This document shows, one piece after another, positions 31,313 to 34,498 of a stretch of 64,000 bases of DNA. The stretch is from an uncultured Gemmatimonadales bacterium. GTDB taxonomy: Bacteria > Gemmatimonadota > Gemmatimonadetes > Gemmatimonadales > GWC2-71-9. Every line of letters starts with the position of its first letter. Within the stretch, counting starts at the first letter, position 1. A program made the position numbers and the translations under genes. The stretch is taken from assembly GCA_963771275.1 (NCBI GenBank), contig CAVYSW010000009.1:128001-192000 (forward strand), in the 5' to 3' direction. The notes beneath the pieces are model-generated. The model was not told the origin of the DNA. It saw nothing but the letters and a program-made list of their open reading frames with translations, and ran no database searches.

Positions 31313-31396
31313 CTCACCGGGGGAGTGCGGCGGCCCGACGTCGCCGGCGGCGCCCCCGCGTCATACCTTAGGACCTCCGGCCGAACGGAGCCACGG

Positions 31397-32950
31397 GTGC
31401 CGAACGCGTCGGATCGCCTCACGAGCGCGCTGGCCGACCGCTATACGATCGAGCGGGCGATCGGCCGGGGCGGGATGGCCACGGTGTATCTCGCCGAGGA
31501 CCGGCGGTATGGCCGCCAGGTCGCGGTGAAGGTCCTGAAGCCGGACCTGGCCGCCGCGGTCGGCCCCGAGCGGTTTCTTCGCGAGATCCGCATCACGGCG
31601 CAGCTCAACCACCCGCACATTCTGCCGCTGCTGGATTCGGGGGAGGCGGACGGATTCCTCTACTACGTGATGCCGTACGCGACCGGGGGCTCGCTGCGGG
31701 GGCTCCTGGGGCGGGACACGCCCGTCGAGCACCAGGTCATCCTCCAGGTCACCGCGCAGGTCGCCGCGGCGCTCGACCACGCGCACCGCCACGGCATCGT
31801 GCACCGCGACATCAAGCCAGAGAACATCCTGTTCTCCGAGGGGCTTGCCGTCGTCGCGGATTTCGGCATCGCCAAGGCCGTGGCCAGCGTGAGCGACGGC
31901 GGCCTCACCCGGAGCGGCTTCCCGCTCGGGACGCCCGGCTACATGAGTCCGGAGCAAGCCGCCGGGCTCACGTCGCTCGACCCGCGCACCGACGTGTTCG
32001 GCCTGGCGTGCGTCGTCTACGAGATGCTGGTCGGCGAGACGCCCGGCATGTGGCCGAGTGACGAGGCCCTCCGGGTGGGACGGTTCCTCGACGCGTCTCC
32101 CGCGCACCGCGAGCGGCTGGACGCCCTGCCAGGCCGCGTCGAGCAGACGCTGGTCCGCGCCCTGGCCATCCGGCCGGCCGATCGCTTCGCGACCCCCACG
32201 GCGTTCGCCGAGGCGCTGACCGCCGCGTTCGCCCGGGGTCCCGCGCTCCCCGATGCGGAGGTGAGCCGGTTGCTGCGGCGGGCCGCGGAGCTCGAAGTGG
32301 AGCATCCCACCAGAGAGGGCGCGCTGTCGATCGGCGGCGTCGAGCAGGTGGCGGCCGAGGTGGGCATCCCGCCGCTGCTGGTGCGCCAGGCCGCGCGGGA
32401 GCTGGTGCGACCGACCGCCCACGTCCCGGCGGAGCCGGCCACGCGTCGCCGCGGGTTCTTTCCGAGCAGGCTGGTCATCGAGCACATGGTCGCGGGGCGG
32501 ATCCCGGAGTCCGCGTACGAGAGCGTCGTGGAGGAGATCCAGCGCACGTTCGGGGTCGTGGGGATGGGGTCCACGCTCGGCCGCTCGCTCACCTGGACGG
32601 GCATGCCCGGGGGTGGCTCGGGCCGCGACGTGCGCATCGCCATCACGCCCGAGGGCGATGGGACGCGGATCCACATCGAGGAGCATCTCGAGCTGCGCGG
32701 CATCACCAAGGCGGCGCCCGGGCTTGGGGCGGCACTGGCCGGCGCGCTGGGCGCCGTGATCGCCGGTCTCCTGGGCGGGGGCGACGCTGCGGGGATCGGC
32801 ATGCTCGTCGGCATGGCGCTCGGCATTCCCGGAGCGATCCGGTTCATCCTGGTGACGCAGGAGATGCAGCGCCAACCGCAGCTCGAGGAGCTGGCCGAGC
32901 GGCTGGCGGCGCGGGCGGAGCGGGCGTTGCCGCCGGGGCGACAGGAGTAA
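31397..32950 (+). CDS. Ser/Thr protein kinase with C-terminal membrane-associated domain
   Basis: GRGGMATVYLA, VAVKVL, HRDIKPEN, DFG, GTPGYMSPEQ; two C-terminal TM helices. Confidence 0.92.
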   Translation: MPNASDRLTSALADRYTIERAIGRGGMATVYLAEDRRYGRQVAVKVLKPDLAAAVGPERFLREIRITAQLNHPHILPLLDSGEADGFLYYVMPYATGGSLRGLLGRDTPVEHQVILQVTAQVAAALDHAHRHGIVHRDIKPENILFSEGLAVVADFGIAKAVASVSDGGLTRSGFPLGTPGYMSPEQAAGLTSLDPRTDVFGLACVVYEMLVGETPGMWPSDEALRVGRFLDASPAHRERLDALPGRVEQTLVRALAIRPADRFATPTAFAEALTAAFARGPALPDAEVSRLLRRAAELEVEHPTREGALSIGGVEQVAAEVGIPPLLVRQAARELVRPTAHVPAEPATRRRGFFPSRLVIEHMVAGRIPESAYESVVEEIQRTFGVVGMGSTLGRSLTWTGMPGGGSGRDVRIAITPEGDGTRIHIEEHLELRGITKAAPGLGAALAGALGAVIAGLLGGGDAAGIGMLVGMALGIPGAIRFILVTQEMQRQPQLEELAERLAARAERALPPGRQE

Positions 32951-32979
32951 CCGGTCGACCGCGCTGGGGGGTCGTCCAC

Positions 32980-33135
32980 GTGGCTGACGTCCCGGAGCGC
33001 CTGAGCGGAACCCTCGCTGGCCGCCACACGATCGAGCGCGAGCTCGGCCAAGGCGGGATGGCGACGGTCTAGCTCGCCCAGGACGCGAAGCACCACCGCC
33101 AGGTGGCGCTCAAGGTGAGGCGGCCTGGGCTTGCC
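32980..33135 (+). pseudogene. 5' fragment of a Ser/Thr kinase with an internal TAG
   Basis: VADVPERLSGTLAGRHTIERELGQGGMATV*LAQDAKHHRQVALKV; TAG at 33070; homology ends at about 33135. Confidence 0.8.
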
Positions 33136-33153
33136 CCCGTAGGAAGCAGGAGA

Positions 33154-33189
33154 CAGAAAGGCCGGGCGACGACATGTCACCCGGCTTTC
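33154..33189 (-). terminator. Hairpin closing the tRNA-like transcript
   Basis: Minus strand AGAAAG-CCGGGTGAC-atgtc-GTCGCCCGG-c-CTTTCT. Confidence 0.55.
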
Positions 33190-33275
33190 TCTCAGCGTAG
33201 CGAAGCTGGCTACGCAGCGGCACTCCGTGGTGTCAACGTACGCTGTGCCTTCGACACCGTCAACGACGCGGCGGG

Positions 33276-33359
33276 TGCTGGCGGTGGGATTCGAACCCAC
33301 ACGGGCTCGCGCCCGACGGAGTGCCGCTCCGCTGCGTCTGCCAGTTGCGCCACGCCAGC
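33276..33359 (-). tRNA. tRNA-Leu-like RNA with aberrant anticodon loop (GCGGCAC; nominal anticodon GGC)
   Basis: GCTGGCG acceptor stem, D-arm GCGCAACTGGCAGACGC, long variable arm CGGGCGCGAGCCCG, GTGGGTTCGAATCCCAC T-arm, A73; loop lacks U33. Confidence 0.75.
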
Positions 33360-33593
33360 ACCCATACGACAGCGCACCATGGCAACCCGAGGGCAGAAGA
33401 CGTGGGAGATTGGACCCGTTGCCGACCGCACGGACACGGTAGCACGTGCGGTCTGGGGCGCCGGCACCGTTTCCTCGCCCGTGGGATCAGAAGGCCGCGG
33501 GAGGATCGTCAATGCCGCGCGGGCGCGGGAGCAGGAACGGGCGTGCGACGAGTAACCCCGTCCGGCTGTACCGGACTCACAAGGAGGTTCAGC

Positions 33594-33785
33594 ATGTCTG
33601 CGTTTCGCGCTGGCGTGCGCTCGGTCGTCCTCGCGACGATCGTCCCTGCGGCCTGCAGGCCGCAGGGGCCGGCGCCGCTGTCCGAGGCCGACAAGGCGGC
33701 ATGCAGCAGGTGGCCGATCAGGCCGTGGCGACGATGAAATCCCCCGCGCCGGATTGGCCGGCATTCGCGGCGGCTACGGCCGAGG
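33594..33785 (+). pseudogene. Truncated, frameshifted lipoprotein fragment
   Basis: AAGGAGG SD, MSAFRAG...PAAC lipobox, PLSEADKAA then frameshift and truncation at the TA promoter. Confidence 0.4.
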
Positions 33786-33836: not shown

Positions 33837-34121
33837 ATGCGTGAGACCCGGGACACCTACTCGCTGTACGAGGCCAAGGCCAAGCTCTCGGCCATCATTC
33901 GCCGCGTCCGGGAGGGGCGACGGGTCCTCGTGACCGTCCACGGCGAGCCGGTCGCCGAGATCCGGCCGGTCGAGCAGCACGCGGGCGACCTCACGGCCCG
34001 GCTGGAACGGCTCCTCGAGAGCCGCATCGTCATCCCCGCCGAGCGCGGGGCCGCGGCGCTCCGGCCGGTGGCGCGGAAGCCCGGTGCGCTCGCGCGGTTC
34101 CTCGCCGACCGCGACGCGTGA
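33837..34121 (+). CDS. Type II TA antitoxin, Phd/YefM family
   Basis: YSLYEAKAKLSAIIRRVREG...VTVHGEPVAEIRP. Confidence 0.9.
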   Translation: MRETRDTYSLYEAKAKLSAIIRRVREGRRVLVTVHGEPVAEIRPVEQHAGDLTARLERLLESRIVIPAERGAAALRPVARKPGALARFLADRDA

Positions 34122-34498
34122 ACATCGCCTACGTGGATACGTCGTGTCTCGTCGCCGTCGCGTTCGGCGAGCGGGGCGCCACGGCCATGGCCCGCCGGCT
34201 CGAGAGGTTCGACGTGCTGGTGGCGTCCGACCTGCTCGAGGCCGAGCTGCGGGGCGCGTTCCTGCGGGAGGGGGTGGAGCAGGAACCCGAGATGCTGGGC
34301 GCGATCTCCTGGATCGTGCCCGACCGGCCGCTGCACGCGGAGATCACGCGGGTGCTGGACACCGGATACATGCGGGGCGCCGACTGCTGGCACCTGGCCG
34401 CCGCGCTGTACCTCGCGGAAGACCCCGCGGCGATCAGTTTCCTGACACTCGACGAGCGTCAGGCTGCCGTGGCGAAGACCCTCGGCTTCCACCCATAG
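34118..34498 (+). CDS. vapC: Type II TA toxin, PIN domain (VapC-like)
   Basis: AYVDTSCLV, EAEL, RGADCWHLAAA, FLTLDERQ; GTGA overlap with the antitoxin. Confidence 0.88.
   Translation: MNIAYVDTSCLVAVAFGERGATAMARRLERFDVLVASDLLEAELRGAFLREGVEQEPEMLGAISWIVPDRPLHAEITRVLDTGYMRGADCWHLAAALYLAEDPAAISFLTLDERQAAVAKTLGFHP

Follow-up and report, generated by a model that had tools for sequence, protein, structure and literature searches.

We have analysed a 64,000-nucleotide (nt) stretch of contig CAVYSW010000009.1 from an uncultured Gemmatimonadales bacterium, called the window in the following, and found in it a class II transfer RNA (tRNA) gene that resembles tRNA-Leu, carries an anticodon that is not of the Leu type and is followed by a stretch complementary to its own anticodon arm. 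Very probably this locus is one copy of a conserved, co-evolving module of the Gemmatimonadales, in which such a tRNA gene is accompanied by the gene of a predicted antisense small RNA (sRNA). As tRNA and sRNA co-evolve, the sRNA might be a built-in antidote to an otherwise mistranslating tRNA, and that a toxic missense tRNA with its cognate sRNA as antidote is the purpose of the module is a tentative reading to which we give somewhat less than an even chance. For the statement as a whole, the conserved RNA-only two-gene module together with its toxin/antidote purpose, we consider the case evenly balanced. In the literature searched, mostly without subscription journals, neither the module family nor any tRNA gene paired with a cognate antisense sRNA was found to be described. 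The genome to which the window belongs is called G000, and all module coordinates refer to the whole 64-kb stretch and to its minus strand unless stated otherwise.

The family was collected with R1, a covariance model of the tRNA part only (14 training rows, one of them from genome G020), which was searched over 151 genomes of the order Gemmatimonadales and gave a match at E ≤ 1e-12 in 55 of them. A BLAST search of 41 relatives had also found more module copies. The locus set consists of all R1 matches except two (G096, G108) and L013, which is a true tRNA-Leu, and four loci from the earlier BLAST among relatives were added to the R1 set. Its 101 matches comprise 63 Leu-like tRNAs with non-Leu anticodons, this being the defining criterion of the group, 37 true tRNA-Leu and one tRNA-Ser, and as the R1 search ignored the flanks, the 37 genuine tRNA-Leu genes are an unbiased control for the downstream complement. 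The 63 modules are spread over 33 Gemmatimonadales genomes of three families, and at least 29 of the 151 sampled genomes are carriers (14 in family f1, 12 in f3 and 3 in f2, all lower bounds because of the E-value cut-off) with 1–7 copies per genome, a patchy, accessory-like distribution. G000 itself carries five modules, the window copy and four other Leu-like class II tRNAs called by ARAGORN, likewise with anticodons that are not of the Leu type; when aligned, the five paralogues have homologous 3' flanks of about 130 nt and each of them possesses a stretch complementary to its own anticodon arm. For the family-wide analysis 59 whole modules in tRNA-then-sRNA order were aligned with MAFFT (alignment A5), and alignment A4 was used for hairpin 2 of the sRNA.

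In the window the complement is an exact 13-nt inverted repeat (33216-33228 / 33316-33328; 16 nt at 94% when extended), as an earlier note on this DNA had pointed out. A second match of 9 nt (33212-33220 / 33329-33337) shows the downstream copy to be complementary to tRNA positions 22-43 except for 5 nt, which were lost between the direct repeats GCGGA/GCGGC, and across a 5-nt bulge the bases that follow the sRNA seed (to 33212) form pairs with tRNA positions 22-30. Within the downstream 190 nt the longest complement of the 37 true tRNA-Leu genes amounts to 5-11 nt at scattered positions, whereas in the family it amounts to 11-23 nt and is located at +39..+79 in 59 of the 63 members. A partner stretch complementary to about positions 23-40 of the module's own tRNA is present in 62/63 modules, the exception being a decayed copy in G000 (L022), and the median arm:seed pairing score is 33 for cognate partners compared to 12-13 for shuffled partners and 12 for true tRNA-Leu. 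The 59 aligned modules have 57 different arm sequences between them; each of positions 28-40 is paired in 55-59 modules and by several types of pair. Over its 18 pairs the tRNA:sRNA helix shows 94.8% paired cells and compensatory changes in 15 pairs, a figure that is somewhat flattered by the helix having been derived from the same alignment on which it was scored; none of 500 shuffles reached as high a value and slid controls were paired to 28-47%.

The helix covers the 3' strand of the D stem, the 5' strand of the anticodon stem, the whole anticodon loop and, on the 3' side of the anticodon stem, the first 2 nt; it excludes the cloverleaf and is not a pseudoknot of the loop only. The cloverleaf is equally well preserved, with 97.7% of cells paired over the 59 modules and compensatory changes in 19 of 27 pairs including all five pairs of the anticodon stem. 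As judged from these alignments, cloverleaf and tRNA:sRNA duplex are mutually exclusive structures that are both kept by compensatory change, and the duplex would have to open the anticodon and D stems in order to form. Cognate duplexes contain 39 G:U pairs and only 12 A:C mismatches, compared to about 1:1 in non-cognate ones, and this excess points to pairing as RNA in the tRNA sense and not to a DNA palindrome. These data also bear on the possibility that the locus has no function at all, being a duplicated tRNA-Leu gene in decay, part of which was duplicated again in inverted orientation and is kept complementary by quasi-palindrome correction (template switching) of the DNA. The sRNA clearly derives from an inverted copy of the 5' half of the tRNA, and both the window copy and the copy at C3:143436 of G000 show signs of decay, but we regard this explanation as hardly credible, since cognate pairing extends over 33 genomes, three families and 57 distinct arms, all tRNA helices covary, the G:U excess is found as described, promoter and terminator are conserved, and pairing persists with swapped gene order and a spacing of about 200 nt, where a hairpin-templated correction is implausible. 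The earlier note had likewise argued against random decay and had named a template switch as the mundane alternative; its test set in advance, whether homologues keep the complementarity between loop and trailer, spoke for conservation and against a one-off event. The decayed copy in G000 (L022, C3:143436-143521) shows a mismatch in the acceptor stem, the T loop UUCGUGU and two extra nt; its sRNA has kept promoter, hairpin and terminator, and the seed match is only 7 nt long.

Judged by its predicted signals, the 3' trailer is most likely transcribed on its own, as an antisense sRNA of about 78 nt. A sigma70-like promoter with at least 8 of 12 consensus matches is located in front of the complement in 45/59 modules, compared to 0/37 downstream regions of true tRNA-Leu and 2/59 shuffles. 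Its -35 element is mostly TTGACT (24/45), the spacer usually has 17-18 nt, the -10 element has the form nAnnnT, and in all 45 modules this element ends 4-7 nt before the complement; the window promoter scores 8/12 with a weak -10 element. The predicted sRNAs have a median length of 78 nt (range 62-135) and a terminator in 56/59 modules, the helix of which is paired to 94.2% with compensatory changes in 11 of 12 pairs. A terminator scan of the window gave one site with 0.2 expected, and the 80-nt window RNA from complement to terminator folds with -42.5 kcal/mol (z = -5.0). Hairpin 2, located between seed and terminator, is paired to 75.7% in the family (A4) with compensatory changes in 5 of 7 pairs, and a Watson-Crick run of at least 6 nt complementary to the D arm was found in 37/59 modules compared to 3/59 shuffles (the window run is 5). 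Hairpin 2 is an antisense relic of the D arm, and the sRNA therefore goes back to an inverted copy of the 5' half of the tRNA. Rfam at E ≤ 10 returned tRNA as the sole credible match and none for the sRNA.

In three modules (L035 and two in G097:C89) the order is swapped and the sRNA precedes the tRNA by about 205 nt; here the sRNA has its promoter, seed, hairpin and a T-run terminator between the two genes and the complementarity is 14-19 nt long, so that in these modules pairing must work in trans. The trailer having its own predicted promoter and terminator and being located upstream in three modules, a single pseudoknotted RNA of about 200 nt is not required. From the proposal in the earlier note of a ~200-nt noncoding RNA on a tRNA scaffold we thus keep a conserved, tRNA-built and functional-looking locus, but not the single folded RNA, which is better described as two genes. 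The same holds for the hairpins it had drawn around the complement: GCGTAGC/GCTACGC and the terminator-like hairpin are supported by the family, whereas the pair GGTGTCGA/TTGACACC is present in the window copy but not conserved as a structure. In the window this stretch is no more stably folded than its shuffles (z = +0.2), there is no excess folding of the equivalent stretch in the 59 modules (median z = -0.08, 5/59 below -2), and in the family it is the predicted promoter region of the sRNA.

A single transcript of about 200 nt, in which the tRNA domain and its 3' trailer act as a cis switch or as a self-masked precursor that for example delays maturation, is in our view rather unlikely. Read-through is likely, as the stretch from the tRNA to the sRNA promoter contains no terminator, and in minimum free energy folds the D/anticodon region pairs with the trailer in 4/5 modules of G000. 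Moreover, an encoded CC is an anti-determinant for RNase Z, and together with the leader pairing described below it may hinder 3' processing of a precursor made as one transcript. However, the conserved predicted promoter puts the start exactly at the seed, the spacer between tRNA and complement has no conserved structure, and the three swapped modules keep their complementarity with an sRNA that lies upstream and has its own terminator. In the 59 tRNA-then-sRNA modules a cis mode may nevertheless operate alongside the trans mode.

Tandem units of about 537 nt with the sRNA in front of the tRNA are found in G097 (L060 / L353 in C89, L035 in C104), each followed by the same CGCCGCAACCTCAG… flank and a remnant resembling the C-terminus of an aminotransferase, and this module appears to have been duplicated along with a gene fragment. 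An inverted repeat CTCGGC…GCCGAG was also seen around the sRNA promoter (for example in L058, L026 and L067), which in some modules encloses the -10 element; among the 59 modules CTCGGC is present in 29, GCCGAG in 25 and both in 15 at varying spacing, and the repeat could be an operator or a processing hairpin.

The tRNA of the window was called tRNA-Ala(ggc) by ARAGORN (33273-33360) and is a member of the Rfam tRNA family (RF00005) with 42.6 bits at 33359..33276, the gathering score being 29. Against the family model R1 it scores 101.2 bits, and the next-best R1 matches are genuine tRNA-Leu(UAA/CAA/CAG) with 78-88 bits. It has a 7-bp acceptor stem (GCUGGCG/CGCCAGC), a 3-bp D stem, the anticodon stem GCGGA/UCCGU with the loop GCGGCAC (G32, C33, GGC, A37, C38), a variable arm GGGC-GCGA-GCCC with a 4-bp stem and a tetraloop, and the T arm GUGGG-UUCGAAU-CCCAC. 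Since the 3:70 pair is U:A, the G3:U70 wobble pair of tRNA-Ala is lacking, and the anticodon GGC is neither NAG nor YAA as in tRNA-Leu. ARAGORN, Rfam and direct reading therefore agree with the earlier note on an intact class II Leu-like cloverleaf with A73, and its extension of the acceptor stem by GGGT/ACCC was found to be part of a perfect 11-nt inverted repeat. ARAGORN also reported about nine false long 'tRNAs' within GC-rich coding sequence of G000 (C1:6508, C3:818716, C8:5074, C10:157418 and others).

Throughout the family the body is that of a class II tRNA-Leu, with a variable stem paired to 100% over the 59 modules, A73 in 63/63 members and a D arm near-identical to that of tRNA-Leu(UAA) of G000. 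Position 3:70 is C:G in 21, G:C in 19, U:A in 17 and G:U in one of the 59 modules. The anticodons of the 63 members are CGC (24), CAC (15), GGC (9), GGU (4), GAC (4), GUC (3), CUC (3) and AGC (1), and they read codons that rank 1 (GCG), 2 (GCC), 5 (GUG), 6 (GAG), 7 (GAC), 13, 18 and 40 in G000. A37 is present in 63/63 members, U33 in 45 and C33 in 18, and G32 was seen in the window copy only. Pairs between the 5' leader and the 3' end extend the acceptor helix in most members (-1:73 U:A in 57, -2:74 G:C in 57, -3:75 G:C in 51 and the compensatory C:G in 4), a pattern not found in the 37 genuine tRNA-Leu genes. Position 76 is C in 42, G in 19 and A in 2 members, and the housekeeping tRNA genes of G000 mostly have U after the discriminator with no encoded CCA. 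A single leucyl-tRNA synthetase (LeuRS) gene, leuS, was found in G000, and no dedicated LeuRS paralogue was found in this genome. One locus could be compared in two species of a genus (L024, G000:C10:82433-82517, and L012 in G006), both of which have an amino-acid permease downstream of it: 18/19 nt of the sRNA seed agree, the two anticodons differ (GGU and GGC) and a G:U pair absorbs the change, which indicates that the anticodon is able to drift within the limits tolerated by pairing.

According to the duplex energies calculated with RNAduplex each sRNA matches its own tRNA and neither the paralogues nor the real isoacceptors. For all four G000 sRNAs tested the cognate tRNA-like RNA ranked first with -35.3 to -43.4 kcal/mol, the next-best partners followed with -31.1 to -33.5 kcal/mol, and the real Ala and Thr isoacceptors were not among the six best partners of any of the four, so that the idea of an sRNA aimed at real isoacceptor tRNAs found no support. 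This is also relevant for a model with reversed roles, in which the sRNA is the effector that for example sequesters a real tRNA or targets messenger RNAs (mRNAs) and has in the tRNA-like RNA a dedicated sponge or decoy. The anticodon loops of the family do resemble those of real Ala, Val, Thr, Asp and Glu tRNAs, some being identical to the Asp and Glu loops of G000, and RNA toxins that sequester tRNAs exist, as the available text on CreT describes (PMC8501985). We consider such a reversal improbable, since the four sRNAs prefer the cognate tRNA-like RNA by 4-13 kcal/mol, the seeds differ among paralogues and thus have no common target, and the acceptor stem, T loop, D loop and A73, which need not be intact in an RNA that is nothing but a sponge, are all conserved or covarying.

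We therefore return to the antidote model, which would work as follows. The first gene encodes an intact class II tRNA like the cell's own tRNA-Leu (D arm, variable arm, T arm, A73) with an anticodon for a common non-Leu codon, the second an sRNA of about 78 nt with its own predicted sigma70-type promoter and terminator, usually directly downstream and sometimes about 205 nt upstream. The sRNA would nucleate on the seven exposed loop bases and then invade the anticodon and D stems, and the invaded tRNA would be unfolded or sequestered and thus excluded from maturation, charging or decoding. A73 is the main determinant for LeuRS recognition and bacterial LeuRS is blind to the anticodon, so that the free tRNA would be charged with leucine and would place it at the commonest Ala, Val, Thr, Asp and Glu codons. 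It would then be a toxic missense tRNA with the cognate sRNA as antidote, and the module might resemble a toxin/antitoxin system made of two RNAs or might gate conditional mistranslation. A more specific version, for which our confidence is lower still, is a protein-free toxin-antitoxin system, possibly for abortive infection or addiction, in which a stable Leu-charged tRNA toxin is set free when the short-lived sRNA is no longer made and the paralogous pairs are orthogonal through the covariation of arm and seed. The window copy is a slightly off-type member of the family and may be attenuated because of G32 and C33, the 5-nt deletion in the seed and the weak -10 element; a G32:C38 pair could shrink its loop to 5 nt.

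Several observations weigh against this model. Both promoters and the transcription start are predictions, and a stricter promoter scan (at least 9/12) of 32900-33700 found no site. The shuffle statistics overstate independence because the family members share kinship. One member with the anticodon CGC (L031 in G062) does have G3:U70, so not all members need be Leu-specific, and this tRNA might be charged with alanine instead of leucine. The end ACC(C/G) lacking A76, together with the leader pairing, could block 3' and 5' processing, in which case a mature tRNA may never form. C33 in 18/63 members and G32 in the window argue against efficient decoding, and the invariant A37 and near-invariant C36 could reflect limits set by pairing or by the promoter-proximal 5' end of the sRNA and not codon reading. 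RNase III (PF14622, PF00636) was not detected in G000, which is 96.7% complete (the same searches detect it in 8/14 reference genomes), and cleavage of the duplex thus cannot be assumed. Finally, the neighbours of the modules are mostly housekeeping genes and not defence islands.

No conserved protein neighbour was found by Pfam among 58 flanking open reading frames (ORFs) of 33 module loci, which were chosen from 90 by omitting overlapping or short ones. The only recurring neighbours are Ser/Thr kinases (5 loci) and TPR proteins, both common in these genomes; reverse transcriptases, transferases or nucleases did not recur among the 58 ORFs, and the alignments contain no conserved ORF inside the module. 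A Phd/YefM antitoxin and PIN toxin pair is encoded on the plus strand of the window (33837-34498, Pfam), divergent from the tRNA-like gene and about 0.5 kb away. The earlier note had connected this pair with the tRNA; the pair is real but the connection is not supported, as a PIN domain occurs in 0/58 flanking ORFs of the other modules. The same result, together with the missing protein partner, speaks against a non-translational use of the Leu-charged or tRNA-shaped RNA as transferase donor, as decoy for an anticodon nuclease (PIN/VapC) or as primer with the sRNA as regulator, a role suggested by the nearby toxin pair and by the C33/G32 variants, which suggest that decoding is not optimised. 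A nuclease decoy would furthermore more plausibly mimic the bodies of the attacked tRNAs than that of tRNA-Leu, and we give such uses little credence. On the other side of the module, at 32968-33112 on the plus strand, lies what remains of the N-terminus of a second Ser/Thr kinase (…TIERELGQGGMATV*LAQDAKHHRQVALKV), containing an in-frame TAG. It directly follows an intact kinase gene (31325-32950) and ends about 40 nt short of the module terminator, and its position suggests a rearrangement or insertion at this site.

The features of the window copy are collected in Table 1. The conserved upstream block is a candidate promoter of the tRNA, and to us it resembles a promoter of the extracytoplasmic function type (AAC/CGT) rather than a sigma70 promoter. 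CGTC is located 31-46 nt 5' of the tRNA (25 nt in one module) in 50/59 modules compared to 4/37 true tRNA-Leu genes, with GGCAnC another 14-17 nt further 5' in the family modules. A sigma54 reading of the upstream TTGCCA block was dropped, as the GG-to-GC spacing differs among the members.

Table 1: Features of the tRNA/sRNA module in the window (positions of the 64-kb stretch).
Feature	Position	Strand	Details
Conserved upstream block	33399..33423	-	GGCAAC 33423-33418, 15 nt, CGTC 33402-33399
5' leader GGGU	33360..33363	-	pairs with A73-C74-C75-C76, lengthening the acceptor helix; 11-nt perfect inverted repeat
Class II tRNA-Leu-like gene	33276..33359	-	anticodon GGC 33325-33323, anticodon arm 33332-33316, A73 at 33276
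Encoded C74 C75 C76	33273..33275	-	'ACCC' with A73; CC encoded, A76 absent
Predicted sigma70-type sRNA promoter	33235..33263	-	-35 TTGACG 33263-33258, 17-nt spacer, -10 TACGTT 33240-33235
Predicted antisense sRNA, ~79 nt	33151..33229	-	predicted transcription start ~33229/33228
sRNA 5' seed ACGGAGUGCCGCU	33216..33228	-	perfect complement of tRNA A31-U43
sRNA hairpin 2, GCGUAGC-CAGCUUC-GCUACGC	33195..33215	-	antisense relic of the tRNA D arm
Intrinsic terminator	33151..33185	-	stem-loop 33185-33161, then CUUUCUGUCU (T-rich tail)

Beyond the genomes sampled, public genomes were scanned, and among 80 loci from the matches listed those with the complement belong to metagenome-assembled genomes (MAGs) of Gemmatimonadales/Gemmatimonadota and to three MAGs labelled otherwise (L148, L155, L181). 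On viral contigs none of at least 118 pattern loci among the matches listed has a downstream complement (longest run 11) and none is family-like. Leu-like class II tRNAs with non-Leu anticodons (Ala, Glu, Asp, Gly and Ile types) were also seen in other lineages among the genome-contig matches listed, namely at sixteen loci (L115, L118, L125, L134, L139, L141, L146, L151, L154, L156, L159, L160, L182, L183, L189, L191) from Solirubrobacterales, Dehalococcoidia, Pseudomonadales, other proteobacterial MAGs and Azospirillum cavernae, the last with two tandem UGC copies that have CCA encoded. None of the sixteen possesses a complementary stretch within about 400 nt, and tRNAs of mismatched Leu identity may be more widespread than the antisense partner.

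Among known systems the T-box riboswitch is an RNA of an mRNA leader that pairs with the anticodon of a tRNA (and NCCA), the tRNA staying folded and a downstream gene being controlled. The module sRNA shares with it that an RNA reads a tRNA anticodon by base pairing, but here 17-20 nt are paired, the cloverleaf must open and no gene follows; Rfam gave no T-box match at E ≤ 10 in 32800-33700, and the module ends in a terminator with no conserved gene downstream. The nev-tRNAs of nematodes are reportedly charged with leucine, and we know of no antisense partner for them. As far as the available text of PMC3333845 describes them, they are class II tRNAs with anticodons matching neither Leu nor Ser, and they are eukaryotic and nematode-specific, whereas the module tRNA is bacterial. 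The allo-tRNAs, according to the available text of Mukai et al. 2017 (PMC5389517) and of the review PMC7609411, are bacterial tRNAs from soil lineages that like the module tRNA combine a long variable arm with an anticodon mismatching their charging identity; some are toxic in E. coli, and a relation to toxin-antitoxin systems or mobile elements has been proposed. They differ by an 8/4 or 9/3 arrangement of acceptor and T stem and by Ser (or Ala) identity, compared to the canonical 7/5 arrangement, A73 and tRNA-Leu body found here. The 12-bp branch of the allo-tRNAs is not present in the module tRNA, which has a 7-bp acceptor and a 5-bp T stem, its 3-4 leader pairs lying outside the mature tRNA. 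An antisense partner is not mentioned in the available text of PMC5389517, in which 'antisense' and 'complementary' occur 0 times each. The tRNA-ProX / ProRSx pair of Streptomyces and Kitasatospora, as far as covered by the available text of the review PMC11415595, combines one identity with Ala, Asn or Thr anticodons, and natural mistranslating tRNAs are described there as often having no U33, which dampens decoding. An unusual position 33 is shared by the module tRNA (C33), but tRNA-ProX is built on a class I tRNA-Pro and is served by a synthetase paralogue of its own, in contrast to the single LeuRS, the absence of a protein partner among the neighbours analysed and the RNA control proposed for the module.

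The module is similar to type I and type VIII toxin-antitoxin systems in having a small, presumably labile antisense RNA adjoining its matched target and in the many diverged, orthogonal copies per genome, and by sequence prediction an adjacent sRNA with its own promoter and terminator and specific pairing, as expected for an antisense-RNA toxin-antitoxin system, are all present. Type I antitoxins, however, are directed against the mRNA of a small, usually hydrophobic peptide and not against a tRNA-shaped RNA. SdsR/RyeA is an example of an RNA-RNA toxin-antitoxin system, and to our knowledge there is no toxin-antitoxin system in which a tRNA is the toxic partner. In type VIII systems both partners are RNA, and CreT acts via tRNAs; according to the available text of PMC8501985 CreT is itself no tRNA but sequesters one, and its antitoxin acts by way of Cascade. 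As far as these systems are described in the sources available, none of them joins a tRNA of mismatched identity to a dedicated antisense RNA.

If the proposed function is true, this would be the first known instance of a cell that maintains a tRNA meant to mis-decode and controls it by an antisense RNA dedicated to it and evolving along with it, and a new type of RNA-only genetic module that ties natural mistranslating tRNAs to the logic of toxin-antitoxin systems. A folded tRNA would be specifically unfoldable by an sRNA nucleating on the anticodon loop, and the paralogous arm/seed pairs would represent a naturally programmable RNA lock for tRNA. Orthogonal tRNA/anti-tRNA pairs could also become parts for switchable suppressor tRNAs. 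As ARAGORN names family members tRNA-Ala, tRNA-Val or tRNA-Thr by their anticodon, the apparent isoacceptor sets of Gemmatimonadota genomes are inflated. Even if the toxin reading fails, the covariation shows a conserved tRNA:sRNA partnership that was previously undescribed in the literature searched.

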